The position numbers and the translations under genes were made by a program. Positions 1-62,448 of a stretch of 64,000 nucleotides of DNA are shown piece after piece. Where the stretch lies: the NCBI GenBank assembly GCA_000091205.1, contig AP006491.2. One strand, written 5' to 3'. The first letter of the stretch is position 1, and every line of letters starts with the position of its first letter. The stretch comes from Cyanidioschyzon merolae. Taxonomy: Eukaryota. The notes under the pieces are model-generated. The model was not told the DNA's origin. It was given only the letters and a program-made list of their open reading frames with translations, and did no database searches.

Positions 1-1665
1 GCTCGGGTGTCGCGTCTCCCGCGCTGGCCCCTGTGGCTTGATCCGCTGACACCTCTGCGGCCGCGCTGTCACCAGCAGCCACACCTGCCACCAAACCCAG
101 ACCTATGTTCAGGTGAGTCGTGATTGCTCCCAACGCGAGACATATAGCCAAAATAAACAGAATAGGACGCCCAAACTTTACCATACTACCTTCCCTCTAG
201 GCACTCAACGACTGTTGTCGATAACGAGCGTGCACCAGCGCACAGCGCAGAAGCATCGATTCGCTTCCGCCGCGCACGCATGAGAGGCACCCGCGCGTGC
301 ATCCATCGTCCTGCATGGAGGACGTGTCACGCGCGTGCGGATGCAATCGGGGGCGTAGGCATCGCTGCGGGGATGGGGGGGGGCCTAAAGCGGCATCGCG
401 CCCCCGCACTCGTGACAGATAAACGTGGGACACTGACCTGCTCCGCATGGTCACGTTTTTTGAATTTCCCCTTAAACATTGTTTTAAATTTGTAGCCTCG
501 ACATTCGACGTGCTTTGAAATGGCCGAGGGACTCCCACGTACTTCGGAGATTCTTGGTCGTGCTTTTTTTGGAGTGGCGCGACTGACACTTTTCTGCTAG
601 AAATTGTAGAGTCACCGGAGTCAAGATTATTCGCGACGCTCCTGAACACGGGGTCGTAAAACAGCCGATATCCGTATCCGATGCACACGCGCAAGCCTCC
701 GCGCTTCTCAGTTCCTCACATGTAGCATGCTCAAATCATACTTGCTTTAGGTTTCGGCGCTTCATATTCCAGGCAACTCGTGGACGCTGCAGTTCGCCCC
801 ACGTGATTGACGAGAAACGGTACTCGGCGTCGTTCGCTGACACGTTCCTCACAAGCCCATGCCGAACGTTCTTCGAACCACTCACGTCAAATTAGACTGG
901 AGCCCGTTCGAAATACAAATCATCAGCTCTCTGCGGGCATCAAAGAAACGGAATTCGACAACTGCATGGTACCTCTTATGAAATATGCGATCGGAGGCTC
1001 CCGTCTCCTCTGTTCACGTGGAACATGAGATGCTGTGCGTGAACCGCAGCGACCTTCTGAGCATGGAATTTTCGGACCGGAACGGGAGGCAGTGAAGCCG
1101 GGACCTGAACCCTATCACCAACATCCCTCTACTGCTTAATTCGAGCTGGATGGGCATCGGCGACCAGCATATCTACAGTCTGAGAGAAAAGAGAGCAAGC
1201 CGAAGCAGATGCAGTGCAAATCCTGCACTGCTTGGTGTTCATCACAGCATGAAGAGACCCGAACGTTAGCATCTACACCCGAATGATGTAGGTGGACTCA
1301 TTCAACTTTGTCCTGACTTTGGTACGGATCGCGAGTTGTGGCGACACCAGAGGCGATTTTTTCGGTCTCACAGCACGTTTCCACGTAGAGCAGAGATTCC
1401 CTCGTGCGCGCGTCGCATCAGGACCCGGAAAAGCGTGCATCATTCCAAGCCCTATTTCCAAGATCCACGATCCAAACCTCCCTTTGGAGGAACGGGTCGT
1501 TTCCCACGTTCCACCGTGTGCCGAGCCTACAGGAAGCGTCTATGGTAGTCGTTGAACCGTCGGTGCCGACGCAGCACAGATACAGAACGGCTTTGGTAGA
1601 CCGTTGCGGGAGTCGGCTTCAGAACGCCGCTCGCTGAAGCACGTTCGGCGCTTGAGCAACCTAGT

Positions 1666-3402
1666 ATGACCACCGAAATAGTAAAGAAGCAGCCGTCGAG
1701 AGAGGAAGCTTCACTAGACGGCGAAGGAGTGGACGTCGTCATCAACGGTTCCGATCTTCCGCAAGTGATTTGTGCTGCGTCCCTTGCGGGCCTGGGGTAT
1801 AAGGTGCTTCTTCTGGAGCCGAGCGAGACGTACGGCGGCTGCACGAGCGGACCACTTTCTGCAGCGCTGCTCTTTGGGGATCTTGACTCGGCCACGGATA
1901 ACAAACATCTCAAGGGCCCTGTACGCGTCGTAGCGAATGGCGGGAACCGGCTGACGGAGCTGCGAAGCCAAGCGCTTGCAAACGCCTCCGCCTTTGTCCT
2001 CGAGTTGCAGCCGCGCTTCTATTTCGCGGCTGATGCCTTCCTGGACCTTCTCGTCGGCAGTGGGGCGGCTTCGTACCTGTTTTTCCAGCCAGTAGACAGC
2101 TTGTTCTGGTTGCAGGCTTCAAGTAACACGGTTGCAGACACTGTCGTTATCGACGTGCCGTGCACCAAGGCCGCCATAGCGCGCTCCCATGACCTCGGAC
2201 TGACGGAGAAGCGCCTGCTCATGCGTTGCCTGCGCTCATGTTTTGTACTGAGTTCCGCGGCGACCGAGTACGATCCGCATAGCCCTGCAATGGATATAAC
2301 TGATGAGGAGCGACGAGAAATGAACCGGCGTTGGTCCGCGGCGGGAGACTCGGCCACGTTGCTTCAGCAACTCGAAGAAGCGTTCGCGTCGGCGCCCTCA
2401 GACCAACAATGGAAACGCGTTGCGGCGCTAGTACATGATATCTACGCTTGGGGCATCGAGGACATGCCGACGGCTCCCGCGACCTGGCGATGCAGTATCG
2501 ACCGCCTGGAGCGCTTCATTCAATCCGTCATGCGCTTCCACGCTGCAACGCCGTTTCTCTGCTGCAAGTACGGGAGCAATGAGATCATTCAGGCGTTCGC
2601 GCGCAGATGCGCTGTCAAGGGTGGCATCCTTGCAATGGACCGAAGCATTATGGCTTCAGCGGCTTGCGATGCGGAGCAGGGTCCAGACGAGAATGGCGCT
2701 GGGTTCGTAGTAGAGACGAATCACGGTGAAAGAATTTTCTGCAGGATCGGAGTCATCTCACCACAGCACGATTCAAATATCCATGTAGACGCGAAACTGG
2801 TACTTCGCTTCGCCGGGCTCACGAGCGAAGCGCTGCGACTTGGCGAACCAGGGCGTACGAATCGCGCTGCCACTGGCCACGCGTTTTTCATCGCTCGATT
2901 CAACGAGGGCGCGCTCGCCGCAGCGTCATCGTATTCGTCTGCCACGCTGTATATCTGGCAAATCAGTTCTGCGGCGGGTATCTGTATGCCTGGCTATTAT
3001 GTGGTCTATGCGGAATGTGATCTGCAGCGGTTGCCTCGTCAGCAGGTTGCAAATACCGAGTCGACAGCATCCGCTCTGCACACCTTCCGGGGCATGGTGG
3101 CGCACGTGCTTCGCTGCATCGCGCCCGCCGCGTGCGAGGCGTGCGATGACGACGTGGCCGTGCTCGAAAGCGTGTTTGCAGCATATGCCTTTTACGAGGC
3201 TCCCGCACCACCGTCTGGATTTTCCGTTCAAACACGTGATGGCTCAGCGAACGTGTCGGTTCCGTACTCGTACGCTCGGATGGACAGGATCCCGCACGCC
3301 ATCCGTCAAATCCTGGAGCATATCGTAGGCGACGACCAAAGAGCAGCATCATCCTTGGATGTGTTCTTTGGTATATCGCCGCCACCAGAGGGCTCCTCGT
3401 GA
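1666..3402 (+). CDS. Rab GDP-dissociation inhibitor / Rab escort protein (GDI/REP) family protein
   Basis: A 578-aa ORF with an ATG start. The N-terminal dinucleotide-fold motif 'VDVVINGSDLPQVICAASLAGLGYKVLLLEPSETYGG' matches the GDI/REP SCR1 region ('DVIVLGTGL...GKKVLHxDxxxYYGG'). Downstream blocks are arranged as in GDI/REP. Confidence 0.55.
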   Translation: MTTEIVKKQPSREEASLDGEGVDVVINGSDLPQVICAASLAGLGYKVLLLEPSETYGGCTSGPLSAALLFGDLDSATDNKHLKGPVRVVANGGNRLTELRSQALANASAFVLELQPRFYFAADAFLDLLVGSGAASYLFFQPVDSLFWLQASSNTVADTVVIDVPCTKAAIARSHDLGLTEKRLLMRCLRSCFVLSSAATEYDPHSPAMDITDEERREMNRRWSAAGDSATLLQQLEEAFASAPSDQQWKRVAALVHDIYAWGIEDMPTAPATWRCSIDRLERFIQSVMRFHAATPFLCCKYGSNEIIQAFARRCAVKGGILAMDRSIMASAACDAEQGPDENGAGFVVETNHGERIFCRIGVISPQHDSNIHVDAKLVLRFAGLTSEALRLGEPGRTNRAATGHAFFIARFNEGALAAASSYSSATLYIWQISSAAGICMPGYYVVYAECDLQRLPRQQVANTESTASALHTFRGMVAHVLRCIAPAACEACDDDVAVLESVFAAYAFYEAPAPPSGFSVQTRDGSANVSVPYSYARMDRIPHAIRQILEHIVGDDQRAASSLDVFFGISPPPEGSS

Positions 3403-4064: not shown

Positions 4065-4343
4065 TTACTGTTTCTTGACCATTCGCTGCATGATAAACAG
4101 CGATGCGTCAAGGAAGCGCTCGGCACAGTTCGATAAACATTCTGTCTCCGAGCTCGACAGTTTGCTGCCAGGCTTTTGGACGCATTTGTCCCAGCAGAGC
4201 TCTGTGAGCTTCGCAATTACTGCTTGCACAGCAGCCTTTTGGTTTTCTTGCTCTAAAAAGTTGCTAAACTCTTGCTGCGCGGGGCTAGACGGCGAATCTG
4301 ACAGATCCCCAAACCCACTCGAACTACTTGAACCAAAAGACAT
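4065..4343 (-). CDS. small Tim (Tim8/Tim13-type) mitochondrial intermembrane-space chaperone
   Basis: Twin Cx3C motif 'CWDKCV ... CLSNCAERF' with a flanking 'KLTELCWDKCVQKPGSKLSSSETECLSNCAERFLDASLFIMQRM' typical of Tim13/Tim8. The track ORF starts at GTG (4388); the first in-frame ATG is at 4343 ('MSFGSSSS...'). Confidence 0.75.
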   Translation of the reverse strand: MSFGSSSSSGFGDLSDSPSSPAQQEFSNFLEQENQKAAVQAVIAKLTELCWDKCVQKPGSKLSSSETECLSNCAERFLDASLFIMQRMVKKQ

Positions 4344-4579
4344 GACTTGCGGACAGTTCGGGTGATACGGCCGCTTCCAGCGGGTCACAGGAGCGAAGGC
4401 TCTCGACGACCGCCGGGTAAATGAATATCCACGCGCCGATCCCTGCCAGCCCTTTTCGACCGGCCGCTTCTATCGGTTTGCGTTTATCTCGAGGCACACT
4501 TCGAGCGTTAGAAGCTGCCGGACGAGGTTGGCTCCCGTCAGCTCCGCGGGTCTCGTCGTCAGCTCCGCAGGTCTCGTCG

Positions 4580-5328
4580 TCAGATATGGCTGGCGGGGCT
4601 AAAGTCTCGGTTCACGAACTTTATGCGTTTATCGCCACTGGTTGAACTCATCAATGCAAGGAGTCCTCGAACTCGTGCCCTCAGTGCCATGTGCTGCTCT
4701 GACAGCTCTGTGTGCTTTTCTACCGCCGAGGCGCTCCGCTGGCTTCTCTCTATCTCGATCTTCTCAGGTGTAGAGCCCAGATCACTCCTTGGACTTCTCA
4801 TCTCTTCAAAAAATGAACCCACATGTTTATGCCGTTAGGTAAGGACCTTACCGGATGGAGAAGGACTTGCACGAGGAAGACTGCACGTGCCCCGGTGTGT
4901 CATCGTGTGCTGAACGCTTCAGCGATTCGCTCAGAGGAGCGATCATTACGTTTCACGATAGCAAACACTCCCTCGACGCGGTTGAACGTCGAAGCGTACG
5001 GAGGAATGAAAAGCAGCTCTACTTCCCGATAGAATCGGCAAAAGCTCGAACGCAAGGGCGATTGGTGAAATGCTACGTTGTGTGATAGGTGGACATCACC
5101 AGATGTCAGGCGGAGAGTCTTTAATGATTCGACAAAGTGATTGCTGTCGTATGAGCCTTCTCTACGAGCGAAACTGAGGTCGCCAAATATATCCACTGCA
5201 GCCAGAACGGAGAATATCATTCTTCTCTTCGAGTTTGATCTCTCATATAGCGAGTTGTCCTCTCTGCGAGTAGCCATATACGCTTCGATCGTTTCGTCCG
5301 GAGAAAGTCCAATTGACTGAAAAAACAA
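4580..5328 (-). pseudogene. degenerate TnpB/Fanzor-like RuvC nuclease remnant (copy C)
   Basis: ORF 4580..4822 ends '...LSEQHMALRARVRGLLALMSSTSGDKRIKFVNRDFSPASHI'. This aligns with the copy A C-terminus '...LTDDQMERRAKMRRLLESVSTINDKKLMEFVNRDFNAASNI' (RuvC-III motif). DNA at 4583-4700 aligns with 23223-23330. The upstream ORF 4900..5328, in another frame, shows only weak similarity to the copy A middle region. Confidence 0.5.
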
Positions 5329-7614
5329 ACCGTCGTCCCTGTGCTTCTCACCGATCGCGACATTCCAGGAATTCTGTCGTTGCGATTTCGGTGGAGGATG
5401 TTCTCGCTTGAACTAGGACTCTTTTTTGCGACTGTATTCCAGTGTTTTCAGGATCACACGTACATCCTGTTGAGAAACATAGAAGCCCGCGGCGGCTGCC
5501 ATCGTCGCTTTTTCCTTCCGTAACGTGTTCAACGGATCATATTCTACATTGACCGCAGGCACACTTTGAGCATATCGGTCCTCGGCTCGAAGCGCATTTC
5601 CTTCTTTGTTTCGGTGTTCCCGAACCATCTGAGTACAGAGATATGACCGACCCCGAGGATGAATGCAGTCCTCCTTTCGCTGTTCAGTAAAGACTGTATC
5701 CTACAGACACTTCGTCTACGATCTATACGGTACAATGCATCCTGGTTTTTCTGATTTCCTGCTGTGCACTGTGCGAAAGCATACGACTGCACGCAGCGGG
5801 GTTGAAACGACCTCGAGTTCGTTGAAAGACGACAAGTGCGCACTCGGCGACACCGCGCCAACGGCACTTGTACGGGTCTGTGTGCGTTGCTTCGGATGCT
5901 GCTCGTACAGGTTCCATCGCGAGACGAACGCGCCTCTGGTACCCGCGAACCGACATACGCTGATGTTCACGACACCCGGGACATGACACTTGATTCTTAC
6001 GACGCTTCAGCCGTGACAAGACTGGATACATATGCATCGGATTATGGACGAGGAAGAGATCGCTCACGCTCGAGTCGCCTTTGCATGGGATGGTGCACCT
6101 GGAGCGCGCTAGAGTCGTGGTGCGACGCAGCGTATGACACCACGCACTGTCTCCATTGGGCGCTGCGCGAAGACCCATCCATGAGAACGTCCACGCGTGC
6201 AAACAACTCTGTTTTCTGATGCGGCCGGGAGTGCTCGTGGTTGCGCGTATCGCACGCAACTGCTGCTGCGCTCCGGTTGCTCGAAGCAACTTGTTTATGT
6301 TGAATTTGCTGAGCGTCATACAGGATCGGGCTCGAGTGCCAAGTGAATAGGAATTGCACAGACAGGTGTGCTCCGGATGCCGCGATCGGTGCCGCATGTC
6401 GTCGCCAGCGAGCGTCTAGCATAATCTCTCGGCCTATTTCATTGGTTTCCTAAGGATAAAGCAAGTGCCCAGTGACTTGCAAATGCCGTTGTGCGATTTG
6501 AATTCCTTGCATATACAGAAACAGGCTCCTAACTCGCCGTTGAATGAGGTCGCGCCCGTCCAGCAGTTCCGATTTTTACGAAGCCACTGCATGCAGCACG
6601 TTCATGAGGCGCGCAGCCGCCAGACGTCGAGATCCCATCCATGGAGCGCGATCCTGTGAGCCCGGCAGCGTATATATGCTCGTTACGTAGAGACAGAGTT
6701 ACCAGTCATCGATCATGCACCCAGATGGAAACGAAAGCAGACCCAGCAACCAAGCGTCTGCGTCGACAGGGGAAGCAGCGTGTACCTCACGTGTCGCTGG
6801 CTTCAGTTGAGAGCGAATCCATCCTCCAAGCGTGAGGAATCCGTCACGGCCTTGTGGATTTGGCTCCAGCTGGTGACCTGCGATCTGAAGACCCGCTCAG
6901 ACGATCTTCGGGACTGCGGCGTACATACACTGTGATGATTCGCGGTTCTGCGCGTGACCAGGAGTTTCCATCAGCATTGTCGGTCGTCGGAAGAGGCATC
7001 GGCCACGGCCGCGGCATGGTCCACGACGCTCCGTTCGGAAGCACAACGCGTAGCAATTCGAAACGCGGCCGAGTCGCCCGGCGTACAAGCGTGCGCACAC
7101 CGCCCATCGTCCGCGGTCAGGATGTACAGAAGCCCACCGAGTTCACGCGCTCTTCTACCAGGAAGCTGTCCGAGTGTAAAGGTTAGTGACTGTCCAAAAC
7201 CAGTGATTCTTCCAAACGGCTGCGTACTGGCGACCACCGGTGTGCGATTGCCTTGCACTCAGAAGTAGTGACAAGAGATGATCCACTATTTGACTCTGTC
7301 AGCGCTTTGGGTAAGAGCCCTAGCTCCGAGAGATTCCCAGTTCGAGCGTACTCATCTTCGTGCAAGTGCAAGTCGTTCCAGATCGCCAACGCGAGAAGCT
7401 TCACTTACGCTCTCAAAACACGAACACTAGTTAAAGTTGCCCACACACCGAGGAAACAAAGAGCCTCCTGGGAATCCGAGTTATACGTACGCTTCACAGA
7501 ACGTCCGTGTAATGCAGGGGAGCTTGCCGGTTAGGGTCGCAGCGGTGCGTCCCCGGTGAAACTACTGGGAAGCGGCGCGCGCATGCAGATCCGAACGTGC
7601 GCCAGCGCATGCGC

Positions 7615-17845: not shown

Positions 17846-17846
<1 letters not shown>

Positions 17847-17882
<36 letters not shown>
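17847..17882. repeat. (CTG)12 microsatellite
   Basis: The sequence 'gctgctgctgctgctgctgctgctgctgctgctgc' is read directly. Confidence 0.9.
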
Positions 17883-18019
17883 TGCATCAGGGTGTGAAAA
17901 TGCCGCTTCAGGGAAGCTACCGCTGTGCTCCTCGATCTTGAAGCATATGTGGACACTAAAACGATAAACGCTCGGCAAACCGTAGCGTGCATAGAGACAC
18001 CCAGTCACAAACGCTTCCC

Positions 18020-18260
18020 AGCAAAAATTGCCAGCTGCCTGTTGTCGACTTCAGGTTATCCAGGAGCAGAACGAGCCTCAGAGGCTGCACCACAAGTTTG
18101 GATTGCGACAGCGCCTCGAGTCCCGTCTTCGGCACCGCACATTTTTCGGATATGAATGGCGGCGTCCGGGTTGCGGTTCGCGACCTCCATGCGTTTTTTG
18201 CCTCTGGTTCAACGCCTTAACGCAAGGATTGCTAGAACTCGTGCCCTATGTGCTACTACA
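18020..18260 (-). pseudogene. TnpB/Fanzor-like 3'-end fragment (copy D)
   Basis: The reverse complement of 18149-18184 translates 'VANRNPDAAIHI', against 'FVNRDFNAASNI' in copy A. DNA 18149-18260 aligns with 4583-4700 and with 23223-23330 at roughly 70-75% identity. Downstream of the motif, the minus-strand sequence stays alignable with copy A through '...cctct(g/c)agg'. Confidence 0.45.
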
Positions 18261-18674
18261 GTCTCGTCATCGTCCCATCGGACAAACATCGGTCCTCTCC
18301 TATCTCTCGTCTCCATCTTCTTCTTCTTCGTTACTTGCTCCTCTCTGCTATATGGTCAGCGACACGAGGATTTTTTCTTTTTGTTTCTGTTGAATCCAGC
18401 GACATCGAATCCTCTGGGATCCGCGACTTCTACGTCCATACATTTCCCCTGGATTTCCATTTCTTCAAATCAAGGCACTTGCATTGCGTCAGCTATAGTA
18501 CGCGAAATAGCATCTGACGACACGCACCTCAGCGTGGCGCCTCGTGGAAATGAACGCTTGTAGAAAGAATCGGCGTGCGAACGTATCGACTCGGTGGCGT
18601 AGACGCCGTCGCTGGCGCTCCGGTTAGCCGGCGTCGCGCAGCAGCGCCTGCGCCACATGAGCTTTCCGCTCCCG

Positions 18675-19179
18675 GGAATCGACATAAACGTTGTCTGGGG
18701 TACGCTAAGATTACCGTTGCTCTGCTCCTGATTTCTGTATTTCTGTATCTGGGAATTTGCGTATTCGCGTATCGGGGAATCGACATAAACGTTGTCTGGG
18801 ACACGCGTAGATTACCGCTGCTCTGCTCCTGATTTCTGTATTTCTGTATCTGCGAATTTGCGTATTTGCGTATCGGGGAATCGACACAAACGTTGTCTGG
18901 GACACGCGTAGATTACCGTTGCTCTGCTCCTGATTTCTGTATTTCTGTATCTGCGAATTTGCGTATTTGCGTATCGGGGAATCGACACAAACATTGTCTG
19001 GGGTACGCTAAGATTACCGTTGCTCTGCTCCTGATTTCTGTATTTCTGTATCTGCGAATTTGCGTATTTGCGTATCGGGGAATCGACATAAACGTTGTCT
19101 GGGGTACGCCTAGATTACCGTTGCTCCGCTCCTGATTTCTGTATTTCTGTATCTGCGAATTTGCGTATTTGCGTATCGC
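18675..19179. repeat. 101-bp minisatellite, 5 tandem copies
   Basis: The unit 'ggaatcgaca(t/c)aaac(g/a)ttgtctggg...gattaccgttgctctgctcctgatttctgtatttctgtatctgcgaatttgcgtatttgcgtatcgg' starts at 18675, 18776, 18877, 18978 and 19079, with a period of exactly 101 bp. Each unit contains internal 9-bp sub-repeats (tttctgtat x2, tttgcgtat x2). Confidence 0.95.
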
Positions 19180-22648: not shown

Positions 22649-22697
22649 TGGACAAAAGGTTGCCACAGGCCAGCGATCCCCGACTAGGCCTTTTTAT

Positions 22698-22817
22698 CAG
22701 CACGCGGTGAAGCAGCCATCGATCCACGCCCTACTTCCAAGTTCCAAAACCCATAGATCTTCTCGGGTATGCTGGTGGTTTCATAATGTCTATCGTACGC
22801 CGAGCCTGCCGTGAGCG
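22698..22817 (+). repeat. dispersed ~110-bp repeat 'R', copy R1
   Basis: The sequence 'cagcacgcggtgaagcagccatcgatccacgccctacttccaagttcc...ctggtggtttcata...gccgagcctgccgtgagcg' is ~70% identical to R2 (25608-25723). It is related to the reverse complement of R3 (29120-29252). Confidence 0.55.
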
Positions 22818-22955
22818 TTTAAAATAGCGCGTAAAGCACCTCTGCAGTCGTGGCACGGAGACAGAACTGGGTTGCCATACCAGAGAGGGCGTCGGCTCGA
22901 GACCAAGCTCATCCATGCCAAAGCACACTAAGCCTATCCGAAACTGCGCCCTTGA

Positions 22956-22990
22956 CCACCACCACCACCAGCAGCAGCAGCAGCAGCAGC
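22956..22990. repeat. (CCA)4(GCA)7 microsatellite
   Basis: Read directly from the sequence. Confidence 0.9.
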
Positions 22991-23054
22991 CGCGAACGCT
23001 TTCCAAGCATCAAACGCTGCATAACCGGTGCACAGTAGCGGCGACCGACGCGAC

Positions 23055-24128
23055 CTAGACGAAATATCTCCCGCCGACATGCAGACGCCTAAAGGTCTTT
23101 AACGACCTGCCCCATACGAATGGCTTCAGCTTCCCCTTGTACAATTCGGCCCTGAGAGGTTGTCCAACAAAGTTGACTCGTGTCAACTCCGGGGCTCTCT
23201 TTGCCATTACTGCACATCTCCTGATATTGCTGGCGGCGTTAAAGTCCCGGTTCACAAACTCCATAAGTTTCTTGTCATTGATTGTACTTACTGATTCAAG
23301 TAGCCTTCGCATTTTCGCCCTCCTTTCCATTTGGTCGTCTGTCAGCCGTCCGTACTTTGCTATATCCTCAGGGCTCCGCTGGCACTTTTCCATATCGACC
23401 CTCTGGGGTGTACAACCCAGTTCATGGTGCGTATACGATGTTCGGAACTCATCTACAGGTATTGTAACAAAACGCCGTGCGCACTCTATGTACGTTCTCG
23501 TAGTTCGAGCTGGTGTACACCCGTTTTGGGTCTTCCAGCGCCCTGCTCCGTATGCTACTACGAGCCTCTGACTTTCATCCTCTTTGAGGGCACTCAACGG
23601 ACTGAAAAAGTTCGCGAACGCCCGCTGCCTCCCACAGCATAGATTCATACGCAAACGAGCACACCGGGGCTTTGTATACTCTTTCCACAGCGCCTCCCAG
23701 TGAGCAGCACGAACTTCACTGAACTCCCGAAAAGCATCAAAGTCCGCTCCGCGGCTCGTCACCTCGCTCAAGGCTTCCAGGTGATCCTTCATTCCTGAAT
23801 TCCATGTCTCAGTTTTCTTTCTTGCATTCCTTGTACCGGATTCTCGATAGTACCTTGCTCTCGAGAACCTCAACAGACGCATGTCTTTCTGACGCAAGTT
23901 GCCGGCAGTACCATCTTCCGCACGTTTGGGTACTGCGATGGTTATGATATTTGTGTTTCCGGGGTTCACACCTACCGCAAAGTCGTCACCGTGCACTTTC
24001 TGCATCGCAGGATCCGCCACCTTCTCATCTTCATGCTTTGTCACGGGCGCAGCCGAGGGCGGAACTGGACGATCCGCCTTCAAGCGCCGATAGCGTACAC
24101 ACATGGCTACTCCATCGGTTTCGATCAT
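23055..24128 (-). CDS. TnpB/Fanzor-like RuvC-domain nuclease homolog (copy A; RuvC-I Asp replaced by Asn)
   Basis: A 357-aa ORF with an ATG start. The RuvC-I-like motif is 'FAVGVNPGNTNIITIA' (N55; copy B has 'GADPGNT'). The RuvC-II motif is 'IPVDEFRTSY' (E227, codon 23448-23450). A degenerate zinc finger reads 'HHELGCTPQRVDMEKC'. The RuvC-III motif is 'FVNRDFNAASNI' (D295, 23223-23250). Confidence 0.8.
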   Translation of the reverse strand: MIETDGVAMCVRYRRLKADRPVPPSAAPVTKHEDEKVADPAMQKVHGDDFAVGVNPGNTNIITIAVPKRAEDGTAGNLRQKDMRLLRFSRARYYRESGTRNARKKTETWNSGMKDHLEALSEVTSRGADFDAFREFSEVRAAHWEALWKEYTKPRCARLRMNLCCGRQRAFANFFSPLSALKEDESQRLVVAYGAGRWKTQNGCTPARTTRTYIECARRFVTIPVDEFRTSYTHHELGCTPQRVDMEKCQRSPEDIAKYGRLTDDQMERRAKMRRLLESVSTINDKKLMEFVNRDFNAASNIRRCAVMAKRAPELTRVNFVGQPLRAELYKGKLKPFVWGRSLKTFRRLHVGGRYFV

Positions 24129-24217
24129 CCCAGTGAGTACTTTTGTTTGCTCACTTTGAGACGTTTGAAATCGAAGATATGCTTCCAGTACGTCTCCCGG
24201 TTTTCACCGGAGAACTC

Positions 24218-24457
24218 CTACCTGTTAACATTGAACTCGGGACTGGTCTCCTTTATGATGCCTTGGAGGACTCTGGAGCTGATAGTCACAAAATGTGACT
24301 TGATGGTGCACAACGGAACGCCATTGAAGCGCTTACCCATTAGGAGAGCCTTCCGTCCCTCCCACTCTTCATGTTTTCCTCTCTCAGCTTCATCTCCGCC
24401 TTGCGTTCGAGTTCTCGATTCAGGAATACGAAATAGAGCAGGATGATGTGATAACAT
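24218..24457 (-). CDS. element ORF2 (79 aa) upstream of the Fanzor-like ORF
   Basis: The sequence '[47 protein letters not shown]...' is conserved in copy B (60832..61182, where it is 116 aa). Its function is unknown. Confidence 0.4.
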
Positions 24458-25101
24458 CTTTTATCATCTTTTTTTTTCATATCTGATGCCTTTTCTGCTG
24501 GATTCGCCATTCCCAAGACTGGACAGTGCTCTTGTACAACCGCACGGATTACAGAAGCTTCATTCGTGCTCTCGTTTGGCGCCTTCTTGTCGACAAAATC
24601 GATCTCATCTTCATGCTTGCGATCGTTCGTGATGCCGTTGATAATCGCCCATATTCCTTTGCGAGAGATGCACGGGTAACGTGCAAACACGGCGCGTATC
24701 ATGAAACGTTCGAGGTTCATAGTCGAATGGTTCTTCAGGTTCGTGATGTACTTCATCGTTCCGTATATGTAAATATGACGGTCACCCCTGTATCGAGTAC
24801 CGTTGAAGCTGTAGAAGGGATGTTTTTCGTGGAGGGCGTGAACCCACTCATTTTCCTTTCGCGTTGCCTCTGTAGCAAGCATGAGGTGACGAATAAAGAT
24901 CATGTCGAAGAACTCGTCCGGAATCTCGACCGTTTCCATGTGCTTCACGTCGTGATACATCTCACTCCCCGAATGCATCAGTCCTGACGACGCCTTGACG
25001 ATGGTCTTGGAGTACGAGTCGACACGGTTCCTAATGGCCTCTCGCAACTTTTCCTTGTACGGATCCTGGATATGTTCAAGAAGAAAGCTTTTCGCCACCA
25101 T
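24340..25101 (-). CDS. element ORF1 (253 aa), uncharacterised
   Basis: The ORF has an ATG start and is conserved in copy B (60284..60825, split by a stop and frameshifts). No recognisable catalytic motif is present. It overlaps ORF2 in another frame because an A9 run (A7 in copy B) sits at the junction. Confidence 0.45.
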   Translation of the reverse strand: MVAKSFLLEHIQDPYKEKLREAIRNRVDSYSKTIVKASSGLMHSGSEMYHDVKHMETVEIPDEFFDMIFIRHLMLATEATRKENEWVHALHEKHPFYSFNGTRYRGDRHIYIYGTMKYITNLKNHSTMNLERFMIRAVFARYPCISRKGIWAIINGITNDRKHEDEIDFVDKKAPNESTNEASVIRAVVQEHCPVLGMANPAEKASDMKKKDDKRCYHIILLYFVFLNRELERKAEMKLREENMKSGRDGRLS

Positions 25102-25607
25102 CTCGTCGTACAGCCGTCTTTCTTGTCGCCTTCGACATAGGGCCTCTCCCGTTTTGATTCTTTCTCTCTTCCGTTTCTTCTGGACTTGGAATTTTTTTTG
25201 TTTTTTCTGGTAGCCGGCGACACTGGGCCTCCAGGATTGTCGACTTGCTCCTACATAACTTTCCTTTTTTAGTTTTTTTAAAAAGAATACTCTTTAAACG
25301 CTTCTCTTATATACTGCGAAAAAACACTCGAGTATTTTTACTTGAGGGTTGAAACAGAAATGAACTGAAAACTATACTTTGCTACGACCTCAACGGAAAT
25401 CCGACTTTTACAGCTGAGCAACACGCTCCTGCTCAGGATCACGTTTCCCTTCAACAGCGGCTTACGTGTCGCGTCTCACGCCTGCCTGATCCCCCAGTTG
25501 CGCTCACCGGGCGCGATTCTCTTTTTCATAGACAAGACGTTTACTTGTGCCAGCATTCTCCGATTACGCGCATTTTTCTTTTCTTACCATTTTTTATGTG
25601 TTTTTTT

Positions 25608-25723
25608 CAGTGTGCGGTGACGTATCCATCAACCCCCTACTCCCAAGTTACATCATCTAAACTTCTTCTCTGATATTCTGGTCGTTTCATACGTCCTAGC
25701 ATGTGCCGAGCCTACCGAAAGCG
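25608..25723 (+). repeat. dispersed repeat 'R', copy R2
   Basis: The sequence 'cagtgtgcggtgacgtatccatcaaccccctactcccaagttacatcatctaaacttcttctctgatattctggtcgtttcatacgtcc...' is ~85% identical to the reverse complement of 29163-29252 (R3). It lies just outside the 5' end of element copy A. Confidence 0.7.
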
Positions 25724-50388: not shown

Positions 50389-53300
50389 ATGAAAACGCGA
50401 CTCAAGAGTTCCAGGGACGCATCACCGCTAGCTTCAAGCGCTGACGTGGAGCAAGGATTCAACGGTGCGAGCGTTCGCCACTACACAAACGGCTGTTGTA
50501 CCGCGTGCGCTTGCGTGTTTCGCGGCGCCCTGCACCAGAGCACTGAATTCTGGAACATCTTGAGCAGCATACGCTTTCGTTGGGTTTTCCTCCACGGTAT
50601 TCTACGAATGGAGTGTATCGTGTAGATTGAACGAACGTTGCGGGAAGACTTCATGGAGTCTCAGCTGTCTAGCGAAAAAATGCGTTACTTATGCAGAGAC
50701 GCCACAGGATGTGAAGTTTTCGTACCGTTGCTACGAACCGTGATGAAGAGCCACGAATGGATAAGGTACAATGCTCGGGCTTGTATGCGAGACCGTCGCC
50801 CGCCGAACAAGACTAAATCGATTTCGTCATGAAATGCGAACACTTTGGACGGGAATGACAAGCGTCCGTCGCACTCGAAAAGACTCTGTTCAGGAGCCAT
50901 CGCATACCTGTCTATGAGAAGTCAAAGAGCGGCAAAATGCTGTTCGTAAAGAAACGACAAGCGACGATTCCGACAAGGTCAACTGCATCAGCGATTCAAT
51001 CGAGTAGTCATGTACAAATCGCCGAACAGATAGAATCGATAAACTCCGGATCTCTCGATGAAGCGAGCATCGCGGTTGCCCCTCCCCGCATCCTTCTGAC
51101 ACGCTCGTAGGCGACGTCGCTTTGCATCACTCAAAATGGATCGAGGAGTACGCAGCTGATACTGGCGTTGCGCTGCTCTTCGTGGCAACCTCGTCTCGCT
51201 GGATCAATTCAATCGACGACGTCGTCTCTCGTGTCAAACGCTATTTTCACGCGCACGGATCAATGGACGAGTCGTTCGCAACCGGGTCTCTGCTCTTGCA
51301 AATGTCGTTTTCTAGCTTCACCAGCCCTGAACTGCTGTGCTCCCCATCTGCTCTTGGGCGGGAGGGAGCGAAAGGACCCGCTTCGGTGCGTGGGCGTGGT
51401 CGCCATGGACAAGTTGACGAAAACGTACTTGAGAAATCGTTAAAACCAATAGACATAGAAAAGGCGCGCTTCGGTCCCACGGTCCACCCAGTGTACCAGC
51501 ATCTCAATAAACAAGACGTATACGGAGTATAGCTCCCACATCTATGTCACCCATTCCAGTGAAGGAGATGGTGAAGAAGGAGCTGGCCTCGGCGAGCAAG
51601 TATGAAGATCTCGAACAACTTCGCGAAGTGCATTGGCGAAACCTGTACAAGTTTTTTTGTTTCCCGGAACGATCGAGACTGACGGAATATCTACCTGTTT
51701 GCGCTTTTCGCGAATCTCAGACCTGCGTCGAGCATGGAGACTCATTGGCGACCGTTCAACGGAGACAGAGGGAAGGGATTCGCGGTGAACGGGGATGCTC
51801 GGTTGGAGAAAATCCTCGCCCGCGTCTGTTTCTAAATCAAGCGGACAGAGCCAAATACCTACGCAGAAAGCAGATGAAGTTGCTTAGCTTCTCCAGGCGC
51901 TATGTTATCGAGTATCGGCTATGCAGCACATCGGGAGGCATTCCAGCGAGTGGAATGACGACATCAGGACTCAGGTCAGGGATGTCAGGACCCCATTGAG
52001 TAGAGGCTGATGCGCTCCGGCTTGCATTCACAGAATACATCAGCATTCAACTGGCTCATGCGGACCAAATTGGGCAGGAATGTCTGGGGCAGCGCTGGGA
52101 CAGCGAACGGGTTCGGTTGTGCGAAGGTAAGAAGCGTGCACTCGCCACCGTTTTTAATGAGTTGGAAAAGGACCTAACCGATAAGTCGCATCGTTTGAAG
52201 TTTGCTGCTGACGCAGGGCAAAGTACAGCGCGCAATGGTTACACTCCTGGTCCTCTGGCGCGAGCGTACCAGTTTAGGAATCGGTTCTGGACAGTTGCAT
52301 GAATGAGTTCACGATGGAATACACGCGTCACGAGCACGGGCACTTGGTGAACCTGTTAGACAAGAAGCAGAGCCCGATGCGCGATATGATGTGCGCTAGG
52401 CCGACTGAACATGAGAAGCTTGCCAAGGTGTGATCCTACCAGCAACCATGCGTGGAAGCACTTTCTGCACTGAGACTTGAACGCTTCGATCACCATCCGG
52501 GAATTTCTCGGGCTGTCAAGTGGCTTTATGGTGTGCGAAGCTCCCAGCGAAACCTGTTATACGGATGATAAGCGTTGTGCTGAAATACTGAGGGCTTTGG
52601 ATGAAAAATGAGAGGCTAAGAGCTAGAGAGGATTGAAGGCTGGCCCAAGCACAGCACTGGTAAGCCAAGGTCAGCACTTCAGCGAGGCTGGAGCGTCCTA
52701 CATATGCGCCAGGAGTGGTGTGTCTGGGCAATCTGTGAAGGTTAATGGTTTCCCTTCATTCCATATTACCTGAGGATACCGGACGCACGGCAGCTTGAGC
52801 CTACCCGTGAACGCAGGGCGCATCGGGCTGCGAGGACGTCTCCGCCTCTTGCTCAAGTTTATCAGGTATCGGTGGTTCGATACCCCTCATCGACGGTATC
52901 CAGTATCCCTCTATTCTTCATGTATGTACGTGTGCGTGTCCATTGGTTATCCATGCTTGTTTCGCGGACACAGCGTCGGTGACGCTGCTCCATGGGCTTC
53001 TTGGCGCGGCAGTGCGCACCGAAGACTTGGGCAGTATTGCAACGGGCCGGAGACTCGGCAAAGCCGTGTGATGCGGATGTTGTAAGCCGAGCTGCGGGTT
53101 ACCCGCACTGACGCTCGCTCAAGATCGTTATGAGGTTCGCGACCTCGTTTGCGATGGACAGGGCTGTCCAAGCTCGGAACAAAGACGGGCCCACCGCGTC
53201 GCATGGCATGAGCACGTGGCACTCTCCGGTTTCGACTGTCGTTGGAACGTCGTGAATGCTTCGCCGGTGGTCCAGGGTTGCGCCCAGCGAATACCGTGTC

Positions 53301-58154: not shown

Positions 58155-60283
58155 GAAAGGGATCTATTGCTTACAAACGCAGAGAGTTCACTCTGACGGT
58201 GAACATGATCAAAACTGCTCGCTACCACGAAGTCCGGGGCTCACGCTGCCGCTACAGCAGAGCGCACCAGCGGCGCAGCAGCAGCAGCAGATCGTGGATG
58301 CGTGCGCGCAGGTGGCGCCCCGCCTCGAAGCATATACTCCATGAAAACGGAAGACTGAACTGCTCGCTGTGTTCCTGATATTCTTTTTCGTTTGTTTCCA
58401 AAGTTTTTTTTACTAGATACAAATCCACGACATACTCAGTGCAGTGATGAGGGACTAACGGACTCGTACGTAGATTTTGGATTTCCGGTGGTGTTTTCGG
58501 AGAGGCTCGTTCGATGTTTTGCCGCCGGAGTTCTGGACGTCACCGGGCTCAAGGTAATTCGGGAATTCATGGAATAAGGATTCGTAGAATAACCGATATC
58601 GCTATCCGATTCATTCGCACTAGCCTCAACGGTTGTCCCTTCCTTAAACGTAAGACGCTCGAATCACGCGCTCTTCAGATTACCGATCGATCTGTGTTGA
58701 AGCAACTCGCGCGCGCAGCAGTGCATGCCGTTTGGTTGACGACGAATACAAGTCGCTGTGCTCCCTTGGCGACTTGTTCACAAGCTCATGTCGTGTGTTC
58801 GTTGAACTTGTTATGTCTAATACTAGATTAAGTTCGGAAAACCAATCCTTTCCTCGTTGTGGCCTTCCGCCAAGCGGTGCGCATCAGCAGCATGATACCT
58901 TTTAAAAAATATGCTCACGGAGGCTGTCGTCTCTTCTTTTTACGTGGATGAGGGTCTTGGGCTCAGACTTTAGTCACTGTAGCGATCCCTTCGAGTCGAG
59001 ATCGTCGCAGGATCGAAATTTCTAGGCTTGAACTCCGGCCTGGATTCTCCTTCCGCTTCTTGTTCTATCATGCACAACATCGCATGCCACAAACCTTTTA
59101 TCGAAAGGAAGAGCGTACGCCTGTGCATGCAGCGAATGCAAAACTCGCCGAGGGGACCACGAAGAAAAAACCCGTGATTCCATTTTTTTCAATTTTTTAC
59201 AAAACGTTTACCCTGGTCGGTGATCCATCTACTTTCAAGTTCCATTACCCATACGTCTTCTTGCATATGCTGGTTGTTTCGTAGGTTCTATCGTGCGCGG
59301 TGGCTCCCGCTAGCGCCCACTGTAGCGCCTATTGCGTCGGTGCGGTCATAGCACGTAGACAGAACAGCCTAGGCTTACCATTGAACACGCTGCGACCAGG
59401 GCGATGCCCAGACGCAGCCTAGCTACCTTCACTCCCAGAATAAACTGCGTTGCGGACGAGTTGCTCAGATTTCACTAAAACACCTGCCACTGCTGAGTCG
59501 AACGGAGCACGAGCCTGGCAGACTCGCCCGGCTCGCGTGATCTTCTACCTATTACGTAAAATTTTTCCAATTCGGAAACCTTTTCTCTCCATTCGCGTTT
59601 TTTGTAGAGGGGCAAAGCAAGATACTTATATGCTCGTGAACCGTACGTCTGTGTTCTTTATTTTAAATAGCGCGCTCGATACGCGCACCTGGGCGATCAG
59701 GCCGTCACGAGATACGGCGCGAATATAGCCGTTGAAGGGAAACGCGACTAGGACAACGCGTTTTCCTGGTAGGGGACATGAGACTCCAGATTAGGTGCGC
59801 GCACTGTTGCTGGGGGCCTTGGCGAACGTATGACAACGGCATCGCATGGCGAAATAAAGTGTGTAGATCCAACGAACAAGTTGGATTCGCGATGTAGTCG
59901 TAGCAAGGCATAGTTTTCGGTTCATTCGTGTTTCAAACCTCAAACAAGTGTATTCAAGTGTTTTTTCCCACTATATGACATAAGCGTTCAAAAAGCGTTC
60001 TTTTTCAAAAAAAAAATAAAAAAGGAAAAGTTATCAAAATGCAAGTCGACGATCCTGGAGGCCAGGTGTCGCTGGCTGCCAGAAAAAAAAACAAAAAACA
60101 GTACCGAGTCCAGAAGAACGGGAGAAGACGAAGAAGCAAAGGTAGGAGGTCCTACGTCAAAGGCTGCAAGAAAGACGACACTATAACGAGCTGGTTGTGA
60201 AAGCCTGTCTTCTTGGACAGATCAAGGTTCCGTGCAAGAAAAAGTTATGAGGTGCCATTCGAAACCGTTTTGAGCCGAACTCC

Positions 60284-60825
60284 ATGACTGTAATAAACGC
60301 GTCGTCAGGACTGATGCATTTGGCGAAGGAGATGTATCGCGACGTGACGCACATGGAAACGGTCGAGATTCCGGACGAGTTCTTCGACTTGACCTTTATT
60401 CGTCACCTGATGCTTGCTACAGAGGAAACGCGAAAGGAAATGAGCGGGTTGACGCCCTCCACGAAAAACATCCCTTTTACAGCTTCAACGGTACTCGATA
60501 CAGGGATGATCGTCATATTTACATATACGGAACGATGAAGTACATCACGAACCTGAAGAACCATTCGACTATGAACCTCGAACGTTTCATGATACGCACC
60601 GTGTTTGCACGATACCCGTGCATCTCTCGCAAAGGAATATGGGCGATTATCACTGGCATCACGAACGATCGCAAGCATGAAGATGAGATCGATTTTGTCG
60701 ACAAGAAGGCGCCAAACGAGAGCACGAATGAAGCTTCTGTAATCCGTGCGGTTGTACAAGAGCACTGTCCAGTCTTGGGGATGCCGACTCCAGCAGAAAA
60801 GGCATCAGATATGAAAAAAAGATGA
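60284..60825 (+). pseudogene. element ORF1, copy B (disrupted)
   Basis: The sequences 'SSGLMHLAKEMYRDVTHMETVEIPDEFFDLTFIRHLMLATEETRKE' and 'MKYITNLKNHSTMNLERFMIRTVFARYPCISRKGIWAIITGITNDRKHEDEIDFVDKKAPNESTNEASVIRAVVQEHCPVLGM' sit in two frames. The N-terminal ATG of copy A is CTG here and is followed by an in-frame TGA. Confidence 0.55.
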
Positions 60826-60831
60826 TAAAAG

Positions 60832-61182
60832 ATGTTATCACCTCATCCTGCTCTATTTCGTATTCCTGAATCGAGAACTCGAACGCAAGGCGGAGATGAA
60901 GCTGAGAGAGGAAAACATGAAGAGTGGGAGGGACGGAAGGCTCTCCTAATGGGTAAGCGCTTCAATGGCGTTCTGTTGTGCACCATCAAGTCACATTTTG
61001 TGAGTATCGACTCCAGAATCCTTTACGGCATCATGAAGGAGATCTGTCCGAACTTCGATGTTAGTGGGGAGGGCTTCACCGGTGAAAACCGGGAGACGTA
61101 CTGGAAGCATATCTTCGATTTCAAACGTCTCAAAGTGAGCAAACAAAAGTACTCACTGGGACGATCGAAACCGATGGAGTAG
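60832..61182 (+). CDS. element ORF2, copy B (116 aa)
   Basis: The sequence '[49 protein letters not shown]...' continues through '[32 protein letters not shown]'. In copy A the equivalent region is interrupted. Confidence 0.35.
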
Positions 61183-62234
61183 CCATGTGTGTACACTATC
61201 GGCGGTTGAAGAAAGATCGTCCAGTTCCGCCCTCGGCTGCGCCCGTGACGAAGGATGAAGATGAGAAGGAGTCGGATCCTGCGACGCAGAAGGTGCAGCA
61301 TAACGACTTTGTCGTTGGCGCGGCGAAGCAGGGAGAAAAGAAGGAGGCGGATCCTGCGATGCAGAAATTGCAGGATAACGACTTTGTGGTAGGCGCGGAC
61401 CCCGGGAACACGAGTATCATAGCCATCTCAGTACCCAAGCGTGCGGAAGATGGCATTGACGGCAACTTGTGTCAGAAAGACATGCGACTTTTGAGGTTCT
61501 CGAGAGCCAGGTACTATCGAGAATCCGGTATCATGAATGCGAGGAAGAAAACTGAGGCATGAAATGCAGGAATGAAGGATCACCTGGAAGCTATGAGCGA
61601 GATGACGAGCCGCGGAGCGGACTTTCAAGCTTTTCGGGAGTTCATGGGAGGTCCGCGTTGCTCACTGGTATGCGCTGTGAAAAGAGTAGACCAAGCCCCG
61701 GTGGGCTCTTCTGTGTGTGAATCTGTACTGTGGGAAGCAGCGTGCATTCGCGAACTTTTTCAATGAGTAGAGTGCCCTCAAAGAGGATGAAAGTCAGAGG
61801 CTGGTAGTGGCGCATTGAGCAGGGCGCTGGAAGACCCAAAAAGGGACTACGCCAGCTCCAACGACAAGAACATACAAAGAGTGCGCACGGCGTTTCGTTA
61901 CAATACCTGTAGATGAGTTCCGAACATCGCATATACACCATGAGGTTGGGGGGGGGGGGGGTGCACACTTCAGAGAGTGGAGATGGAAAAGTGCCAGCGG
62001 AACCCTTAACATATGAAAAAGTACAGAGCGCTGACGGAAGAGCAAATGGAAAGGAGGGCGAACGTTCGTGGACTCCTTGCACTAGTAAGTACAACTACCA
62101 ACGGCAATAAACGGATGGAGTTCGTGAACAGAGACTTTAACGCAGTTATCAATGTAAGGAGATATGCGGTGATGGAACAGAGACCTCCAGAGTCGACACG
62201 AGAGAATTTTGTTGGACAACCTCTTAAGGTTTAA
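61164..62234 (+). pseudogene. TnpB/Fanzor-like nuclease, copy B (frameshifted; RuvC-I Asp retained)
   Basis: Frame 0 reads '[23 protein letters not shown]...DNDFVVGADPGNTSIIAISVPKRAEDG' (D retained). It carries an internal 66-bp tandem duplication of the 'DPAxQKxQxNDFVVGA' segment. The C-terminus lies in another frame: 'LTEEQMERRANVRGLLALVSTTTNGNKRMEFVNRDFNAVINV'. Confidence 0.6.
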
Positions 62235-62448
62235 CTATATGAGAAAAAATGGAAGCAGTAGTAGGTGGCCGGTCGAAAAAAACTGGTAGGCGTCTGCACA
62301 TCAGTCGGAGACTTCTTGTCTAGGGCGCAGGTCACCAGTACTGTATACCGCCGGTGGCAACGTTTTTCTTTTGAAAGGCGTTCGCTAGCAGCGTCCGAGG
62401 AAGTAGCAACCGCAGCGCGGTAGGCGTCAAGCCTGGTGGACGGGTCGA

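Follow-up and report, generated by a model that had tools for sequence, protein, structure and literature searches.

The closest described relative of the sequences analysed here comes from the same genome. CMe-1A is a Fanzor1 transposon family of Cyanidioschyzon merolae with about 150 copies, each approximately 80% identical to a 3169-bp consensus (Bao & Jurka 2013, Mob DNA 4:12, PMC3627910). As presented in that report, the family has neither terminal inverted repeats (TIRs) nor target-site duplications, and its 5' 635 bp constitute a separate repeat, TE-N2_CMe, of about 70 copies; its transposon class has been called unknown since 2013 (PMC3627910). The same report describes PUl-1 of Pythium ultimum, a Mariner+Fanzor1 element with 24-bp TIRs, TA duplications and a full Fanzor1 ORF, in which a transposase of the IS630/Tc1-mariner type lies upstream of Fanzor1 in the same orientation. 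Guide RNAs of Fanzors come from the 3' end of the ORF, where it abuts the right end of the transposon (Jiang et al. 2023, PMC10530073). In Chlamydomonas reinhardtii there are 20 further, ORF-less copies of the CrFNuc-1 fRNA, described as highly conserved, and RNA from the parental 3' UTR is found in small-RNA data (PMC10530073).

The window, that is the whole 64-kb stretch of DNA analysed here, is from C. merolae 10D, and three of its proteins are identical to BAM80086.1, BAM80094.1 and BAM80105.1 of that strain. It was compared with the published 3169-bp CMe-1A consensus (supplement of Bao & Jurka 2013, PMC3627910) and with 80 related loci, representing about 50 distinct insertion sites, taken from hot-spring metagenomes with Cyanidioschyzon populations; this set samples related populations and is not a genome-wide census of strain 10D. 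Within it, L012 is equivalent to L031, and L067 to L030. In total the window holds five Fanzor1 relics, one Tc1/mariner-type transposase pseudogene and eight solo TE-N2 pieces (Table 1), from repeat families largely described before in C. merolae. The outcome is mainly a correction of annotation, from which the right-end hairpins of CMe-1A and a recurrent transposase fusion emerge as results potentially useful to transposon specialists.

Table 1. Fanzor1-related and transposase-related features of the window
Feature	Position	Strand	Description
Fragment C	4352..4784	-	3'-end relic of a CMe-1-like Fanzor1 element
RuvC-III motif of C, KFVNRDFSPASHI	4583..4621	-	minus-strand translation
Spacer	4785..4899	-	from DDE_3 stop codon to Fanzor-like part; belongs to repeated composite unit
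DDE_3 transposase pseudogene, IS630/Tc1-mariner-type	4900..5850	-	ORF 4900-5328 plus decayed N-terminal part
D tail	17954..18077	-	homologous to tails of other D-type copies
D 3' part	18078..18265	-	CMe-1A 2841-3010, residues ~640-700
RuvC-III motif of D, VANRNPDAAIHI	18149..18184	-	Asp to Asn
D 5' part	18311..18535	-	CMe-1A 814-1019, 5' UTR and first ORF codons
Copy A	22999..25515	-	CMe-1A 648-3166, 84.5% identical to consensus
Relic E	51639..52272	+	very diverged Fanzor1 pseudogene, tblastn E 3e-14
Copy B	59221..62380	+	near full-length CMe-1A, 77-3169, 83.7% identical to consensus
Solo TE-N2 pieces	54158-53530, 29240-28772, 22651-22901, 1426-1618		
Solo TE-N2 pieces (rest)	25636-25739, 8891-8743, 39790-39672, 40753-40658		

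Fanzor1 relics and a transposase pseudogene in the window

An nhmmer DNA profile of 47 non-orthologous family 3' ends located four sites within the 64-kb window: B (61891-62386), A (23474-22992), C (4784-4372, E 1.3e-46) and D (18247-18078, E 6.4e-15). Copies A and B were assigned to CMe-1A because their identities to the consensus (84.5% and 83.7%) reach the ~80% usual in the family. Both are broken in frame, which leaves the window without an intact Fanzor1 ORF: A carries Asn in place of the RuvC-I Asp and has its stop codon at 23055, while B has gaps in the TE-N2 part and many frameshifts. The contexts GxDPG, DEFRT[ST] and NRD were used to locate the RuvC triad D...E...D, which is complete in the CMe-1 consensus and in copy B (GADPG, VDEFRTS, NRDFNA). 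Fragment C keeps only the RuvC-III NRD of the triad and D has NRN, and therefore neither can encode a nuclease. The fifth relic, E, retains a central portion of the protein (residues 367-393 and 454-590, ~33% identity) with a faint RuvC-III trace at 52456-52504 (nhmmer E 0.013).

The parent family of A, B, C and D is assigned to the Fanzor1/TnpB superfamily by profile comparison. The CMe-1 family profile retrieves 1435 representative proteins, and a profile of 65 superfamily representatives matches solved Fanzor1 structures in a PDB search, namely 9cf0 (P. parasitica (Parasitella) Fz1, E 4e-21), 8gkh (S. punctatus (Spizellomyces) Fz1, E 3e-13) and 9cer (G. theta (Guillardia) Fz1, E 2.5e-7). 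Only this deeper superfamily profile succeeded; PDB searches with a single sequence, then with a shallow profile, returned nothing. Neither Pfam nor NCBIfam assigned the A ORFs or family members to TnpB or Fanzor, and an AlphaFold2 model from a 22-sequence alignment reached a pLDDT of 33. One relative has a Cas12f1-like_TNB match below threshold.

Fragment C corresponds to CMe-1A 2738 to ~3169, that is residues ~612-734 and the 3' UTR. By blastn it is 69.7% identical to the CMe-1A consensus over 360 bp (CMe-1A 2738-3088 against window 4784-4431), 67% to A over 289 bp (E 2e-36), 63.5% to B over 348 bp and 69% to D over 199 bp (E 1e-27); by tblastn it is 53% identical to the Fanzor protein over 68 aa. 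The assignment is confident for 4431-4784, the last of these positions being where Fanzor similarity stops, and of low confidence for 4352-4430, a decayed right end. In the RuvC-III region the catalytic Asp is kept and both upstream Cys of the zinc-finger region are changed to Ser. A protein search with the C peptide returned its own strain allele, P0121, only, and no full-length protein of the C/D lineage.

Beyond the Fanzor-like part of C lies a different gene. ORF 4900-5328 matches the C-terminal part of a DDE_3 transposase (Pfam PF13358, 39.1 bits against a cut-off of 28.6, E 8e-10); the NCBIfam IS630 equivalog gives it 33.5 bits, below a cut-off of 100. Region 4900-5850 is thus read as an IS630/Tc1-mariner-type transposase pseudogene and not as Fanzor. 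The first-pass annotation, made from the letters of the window, had called the whole of 4580-5328 a Fanzor-like fragment, which holds for C, at 4352-4784, and does not hold for 4900-5328.

Fragment D has two parts. Its 3' part is 68% identical to the CMe-1A consensus (window 18247-18080) and 50% identical in protein over 42 aa by tblastn, with an in-frame stop; by blastn it is ~61% identical to A over 161 bp (E 5e-10). Its 5' part matches CMe-1A by blastn (65%, 226 bp, E 6e-13) and positions 82-279 of the full-length nhmmer profile (E 1.4e-6). The Fanzor-like 3' fragment first placed at ~18.0-18.26 kb is accordingly homologous to the 3' end as described, but a 5' part is also kept at 18311-18535.

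Several other details of the first description could be compared directly with these limits. C and D are decayed Fanzor-derived sequence, with homology beyond chance and pseudogenisation in both, and both minus-strand RuvC-III peptides are present where they had been read. The distance of ~240 bp between C and the start of a Tim13-like gene also agrees, the RuvC-III motif lying 237 bp from the ATG at 4346. The ~400 bp said to separate D from a 101-bp minisatellite (18674-19178) is too large, since the 5' part of D ends ~140 bp from it. All four copies do share an aligned block, but instead of ~110 bp on either side of the motif it totals ~170 bp (CMe-1A 2841-3010), or ~65-95 bp per side. The ORF 3' end and the following ~100-150 bp are homologous as stated, but what was taken for downstream sequence is mostly still coding in intact copies (compare the A stop at 23055). 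Finally, the 3' end is not the only part of the family to survive: relic E keeps the middle, D keeps a 5' part, and the 5' module TE-N2 occurs alone eight times.

Subfamily and deletion junctions of C and D

By blastn, C (69.7%) and D (65-68%) miss the ~80% identity usual in CMe-1A. A leave-one-out C/D-type consensus, built from C/D-type modules, is closer to them: C is 82.5% and D 77.1% identical to it, against 67.4% and 58.7% to CMe-1A. Because of this greater closeness C and D were filed as a sister subfamily, an older one, rather than as CMe-1A proper. The lineage differs by ~24% from the CMe-1A consensus and is sampled only as deletion derivatives. Its consensus translates as an open Fanzor-like frame with FVNRDFNAAINI intact. 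Divergence of this consensus from CMe-1A amounts to 25% at first, 16% at second and 31% at third codon positions (chi-square p 0.07), which hints weakly at a split that took place while the lineage was still coding.

The two parts of D meet at a deletion junction, ~1070|2841, which joins CMe-1A ~814-1070 to ~2841 onward and is in frame by consensus coordinates. The same junction is common to about 5-6 other copies at unrelated loci (L044, L067, L041, L066 and L069 among them), and the flanks of the junction-sharing loci, when compared, do not align. A profile search found both end parts in D itself, L066 and L069, and the tail of D (window 18118-17954) is 67% identical to L044:3453-3616. Internally deleted, non-autonomous derivatives of DNA transposons are represented by MITE-like elements and by the bacterial PATEs derived from IS200/IS605. 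Like these, D keeps both parental ends without the middle and is multicopy with one deletion junction, at loci with unrelated flanks, and D is therefore classed here as an internal-deletion, or mini, element. Unlike them, the D copies are old and decayed, and their termini and mobilising enzyme are undefined.

A shared junction also characterises C, at its border with the DDE_3 remnant, which is common to L012/L031: window 4930-4434 is contiguous with L012:940-1423 across this border (72%, 503 bp). The whole composite unit, 5850-4352, recurs and is 66-71% identical to L044, L030/L067 and L041. Window 5850-4775 aligns with L044:2146-3221, and at L044:2142-3620, L067:6553-5016 and L041:709-1906 the DDE_3 part is followed by a D-type module. 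An arrangement of DDE_3 and a Fanzor 3' end is thus present in the window, L044, L030/L067, L041 and partly L012/L031, with unrelated flanks. TIRs were sought in the window unit, L044, L067 and L041 and none was found; the copies are ~70% identical, and TIRs may have eroded. Since no termini (TIRs or target-site duplications) are definable for the mini element or the composite, movement as a unit would be read solely from recurrence at differing flanks. The passages of Bao & Jurka (2013, PMC3627910) on CMe-1A describe neither a mini form nor a version joined to a DDE_3 pseudogene. That a DDE_3 remnant is repeatedly joined to CMe-1-like sequence offers a lead on the past movement of an unclassified Fanzor1 family.

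Right-end hairpins and the guide-RNA question

C and D derive from the part of the element that abuts the right end, the ORF 3' end. That the kept region is the end encoding the guide RNA had been proposed at the outset, and it matches the characterised Fanzor/TnpB systems (Jiang et al. 2023, PMC10530073). In CMe-1A, conservation extends ~62 nt past the stop codon to ..GAAAGGCG, the exact end of the published consensus. This right end contains two hairpins, H1 (GGCGGG/CTCGCC) and H2 (10-12 bp, with two variant registers). Compared with dinucleotide shuffles, the right ends of well-preserved copies give fold z-scores of -3.4 for B and of -4.7, -2.9 and -2.2 for three loci. Folding is consistently stronger in the sense than in the antisense strand (mean -21.9 versus -16.4 kcal/mol, Wilcoxon p 5e-7), an asymmetry to which the G+U-rich composition of the sense strand contributes. 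In copy B the hairpins are intact at 62327-62380 (z -3.43), and a covariance model of the right-end element scores 82.7 bits there and 41.9 bits at copy A.

Covariation over hand-defined helices is weak. About 75-77% of cells are paired, versus ~40% in slid controls, and there are 20 double-change cells versus 12.2 expected in shuffles, a number reached by 0 of 500. RNAalifold, applied to 41 right ends over 226 columns (ORF 3' end and UTR), gave essentially no consensus fold (-0.41 kcal/mol), and an Rfam search of the window gave no match. The sequence just past the right end is common to subsets of copies and is not locus-specific. A Helitron-like reading of the right-end hairpin was rejected, the ends being unlike CTRR and varying by subgroup. 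The hairpins of CMe-1A are plausibly a candidate part of an omegaRNA/fRNA, and they equally fit a signal acting at the DNA level at the end of the element. If the family has a guide-RNA scaffold, the coding sequence still present in C and D could belong to it. The right-end hairpins are a concrete guide-RNA candidate in a tractable alga with a tiny genome.

The terminal regions of C and D fold like shuffles (z -0.64 and +0.02), as does that of copy A (+0.76). With its filters off, the covariance model detects A and B but neither C nor D, even when matches up to E<=10 are admitted. Tentatively, 17899-17925 near D may be a remnant of a right-end hairpin. Divergence in units of the C/D type is about the same throughout, from the DDE_3 and 5' parts to the RuvC-III block and tail (~66-72% identity between copies). 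At the C locus, which two metagenome contigs match with 99.1-99.2% identity, the window allele differs from the strain allele P0121 by a derived 5-bp insertion with a frameshift and a stop, whereas other strains read through. Over the 413 bp of the Fanzor-like block of C there are 8 substitutions, compared with 25 over 3623 bp in the rest of the locus (Fisher p 0.016); the rate in the block is not below that of the DDE_3 pseudogene next to it (8 over 950 bp, p 0.10). C and D are in neutral decay, with no sign of present function, and the hairpin and DDE_3-fusion results do not alter this verdict.

Origin of the shortened elements

The observed homology, family identity, shared deletion junctions, uniform divergence, loss of hairpins and strain polymorphism are best explained if C and D are dead, neutrally decaying relics of amplified, already shortened masters, non-autonomous Fanzor1 derivatives from an old sister subfamily of CMe-1A; I give this reading a probability of about 0.8. 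In D, one internal deletion would have joined the 5' UTR and first ~55 codons to the last ~90 codons and the 3' end, and the resulting mini element would then have been copied to several loci. In C, the last ~120 codons and the 3' end of an element of the same subfamily would have become fused behind the DDE_3 transposase pseudogene, and this composite, presumably moving as a unit, would likewise have been copied to several loci. There would have been two or three deletion events in master copies, followed by amplification. The terminal sequences, meaning the right-end hairpins and any guide-RNA segment, would probably be needed for mobilisation. Every copy would have the 3' end because the shortened masters already had it, and not because of present-day selection at C or D.

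The first description had left two explanations for the retained 3' end, chance and selection on an RNA element. Under the former, C and D would be CMe-1A insertions that each lost a 5' part locally, the retention of the 3' end being coincidental. Relics of transposable elements with arbitrary breakpoints are commonplace, and single 5'-truncated copies with unique breakpoints do occur in the related loci (L067b, L075b, L029). Nonetheless, C and D are nearer each other and the C/D-type consensus than CMe-1A, D retains a 5' part too, and the D junction recurs in about 5-6 other copies and the C junction in L012/L031, at loci whose flanks do not align. Recurrence of the junctions at other loci means that each shortened form arose a single time and was amplified afterwards, which contradicts independent 5' deletions and makes this account very unlikely. 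Selection on an RNA would mean that the 3' modules of C and D are kept as omegaRNA/fRNA scaffolds and used in trans by the Fanzor1 of intact CMe-1 copies, for instance in homing or in maintaining shortened elements. The ORF-less fRNA copies of C. reinhardtii (Jiang et al. 2023, PMC10530073) provide a precedent, being likewise derived from a Fanzor 3' end and without a nuclease ORF, and the hairpins of intact CMe-1A right ends (z -2.2 to -4.7, sense strand more stable) and their compensatory changes (20 double-change cells versus 12.2 expected) are in its favour. C and D differ from the CrFNuc-1 copies, however, in that they are 59-67% identical to CMe-1A, lack the hairpins and show no sign of constraint. 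Their z-scores are close to 0 (-0.64 and 0.02), the covariance model finds neither, RNAalifold (-0.41 kcal/mol) and Rfam provide no consensus fold or match, divergence is uniform across the parts of the unit, and C has a strain-specific 5-bp indel and stop together with an excess of substitutions. In addition, the window lacks an intact Fanzor1 ORF and A has Asn in RuvC-I. For C and D these results support neither a conserved fold with compensatory change nor the selection that had been envisaged, and I consider present use as guide-RNA genes highly improbable. Co-option of C as promoter or 5' UTR of the adjacent Tim8/13-like gene is hardly credible: the decayed tail runs to ~4352, ~6 bp from the ATG at 4346, and the locus is 99% conserved in two metagenome strains, but with 99% identity overall such conservation is uninformative, and differences are more frequent in the relic region than elsewhere in the locus, not rarer.

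How the Fanzor part came to lie behind a transposase is a separate matter. Region 5850-4352 might descend from a Mariner-type element in which a transposase was followed by Fanzor1, as in PUl-1, with the Fanzor deleted internally in two ways. Gene order and orientation are those of the Mariner+Fanzor1 elements of Bao & Jurka, the composite is present at at least 4 loci with DDE_3 and Fanzor parts similarly diverged, and both deletion forms, the C/L012 type and the L044 type, have the same DDE_3 side. Unlike PUl-1, the composite shows no TIRs and has Fanzor 3' (or 5' and 3') ends only, behind a transposase that is a pseudogene. Moreover, among ~25 loci that include 4.5 kb upstream, none combines DDE_3 with a full-length Fanzor, a tblastx comparison of the DDE_3 remnant with the Mariner transposase of Pythium PUl-1 gave nothing meaningful, and solo D-type copies reach further 5' than the DDE_3 junction, which fits a nested or adjacent insertion that was amplified later. 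Descent from a two-gene transposon is therefore possible but doubtful. A broader proposal, in which the CMe-1 lineage was once carried by an IS630/Tc1-mariner-type DDE transposon (transposase, then Fanzor1) and the D and C derivatives spread through the right-end module they kept (guide RNA and terminal hairpins), with ORF-less copies maintained by Fanzor1 in trans, is unlikely.

With C and D read as relics of shortened masters, the behaviour of other partial copies can be considered. Among the secondary partial copies found near other family members, most keep the 3' part. A strong 3' bias was down-weighted, however, as several of these copies share junctions and flanks and represent one event copied (a 97-bp piece in L021, L046 and L059; L012b). 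After collapsing, the independent events number about 6 that keep the 3' end only, 2 that keep both ends, 1 that keeps the 5' end only and 1 the middle; 5'-truncation thus exceeds 3'-truncation by ~6 independent events to 1, which is not significant. The bias is suggestive, and a special role of the 3' end retains some plausibility. The opposite direction is indicated by the 5' module TE-N2, which is solo eight times in this window alone.

Structure at the right end of CMe-1A

The right end, that is the 3' terminus, of the published Fanzor1 transposon family CMe-1A carries two hairpins that are conserved in alignments of right ends from approximately 40 related loci (A4 and A6). For the longer of the two there are two alternative registers, CGTCGTTCGACTTTCGAACGGCG and AACGTTTTTCTTTTGAAAGGCGTT. 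The two hairpins are stable, and the sense strand is the more stable of the two strands. Directly past the published right end, 8-15 nt are common to subsets of copies at different loci, the common sequences being TTTGTTTCCAGGGG, TTCGCTAGCAGC and TTYGG. This points to an element whose real end is further out than published, or else to a preference for particular targets at insertion.

A 97-bp piece of the right end also lies approximately 720 bp upstream of a CMe-1A core in three related metagenomic loci (L021, L046 and L059), with an identical upstream junction in all three. Its downstream flank is also borne by the 3' relic of a further locus (L012:1075-1523), and this arrangement looks like a larger repeated composite.

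Coordinates of the features (window positions unless a related locus, L0xx, or an alignment is named; P0xxx, proteins)
Feature	Position	Strand	Remarks
CMe-1A right-end hairpin pair	62327-62380 (copy B)	+	~40 related loci, A4, A6
Shared sequence past right end	A4 columns 205-220		e.g. 62381-62392; L018, L076, L015, L063; L071, L059
97-bp piece	L021:1234-1329, L046:796-891, L059:1644-1737		= CMe-1A 3073-3169
Coding tandem repeat, ~23 residues	61185-61562 (copy B)		..KHEEKKEA..QKVQDN.LVV.A; also P0011, P0012
TE-N2_CMe solo pieces	54158-53530, 29240-28772, 22651-22901, 1426-1618, 25636-25739, 8891-8743, 39790-39672, 40753-40658
Tim8/13-like gene and adjoining right end of relic C	4065-4388 and 4344-4352	-	Pfam zf-Tim10_DDP, E 9e-25
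Relic E, Fanzor1 pseudogene	51639-52272, trace at 52456-52504	+	~33% aa identity to CMe-1
IS630/Tc1-mariner-type DDE_3 transposase pseudogenes	4900-5850; L044:2142-3220; L067:5533-6553; L041:709-1378	- (window)
(CAG)n/(CTG)n microsatellites	17846-17881 and ~22960-23000
101-bp minisatellite	18674-19178		5.0 copies, 95% identity

Coding region and 5' pieces

In copy B, one of the two long CMe-1A copies, and in P0011 and P0012, the RuvC-I aspartate is immediately preceded by the coding tandem repeat, which is present in one to four copies across family members. This catalytic residue is replaced by asparagine in copy A, the other long copy (GVNPG, 23960-23975); copy B and the consensus read GADPG. 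TE-N2_CMe, a repeat equal to the 5' 635 bp of CMe-1A, is found in the window as eight solo copies or pieces, two of which bracket copy A, one on each side. A reading of the published CMe-1A consensus also places a 9-bp hairpin, CTTTCCCCC...GGGGGAAAG, in the TE-N2 3' end (consensus positions ~585-625).

Relics and their neighbours

The Tim8/13-like gene has its ATG about 6 bp away from where the decayed right end of the shortened relic C stops, and the immediate upstream region of this gene is therefore transposon-derived. The JGI gene model of the relic C ORF itself, known from a strain allele (P0121), carries the label 'TIM8'. CMe-1-like deletion derivatives lie directly downstream of a DDE_3 pseudogene, in the same orientation, at at least four loci; terminal inverted repeats were looked for in this pseudogene family and none were found.

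A fifth, strongly diverged Fanzor1 pseudogene in the window, relic E, is absent from the four copies (A to D) of the first-pass annotation. It retains the middle of the protein (residues 367-393 and 454-590), and a faint RuvC-III trace follows at 52456-52504. The right ends of the shortened relic D and of copy A are each directly followed by a (CAG)n/(CTG)n microsatellite, and approximately 140 bp separate the 101-bp minisatellite from the 5' part of relic D.
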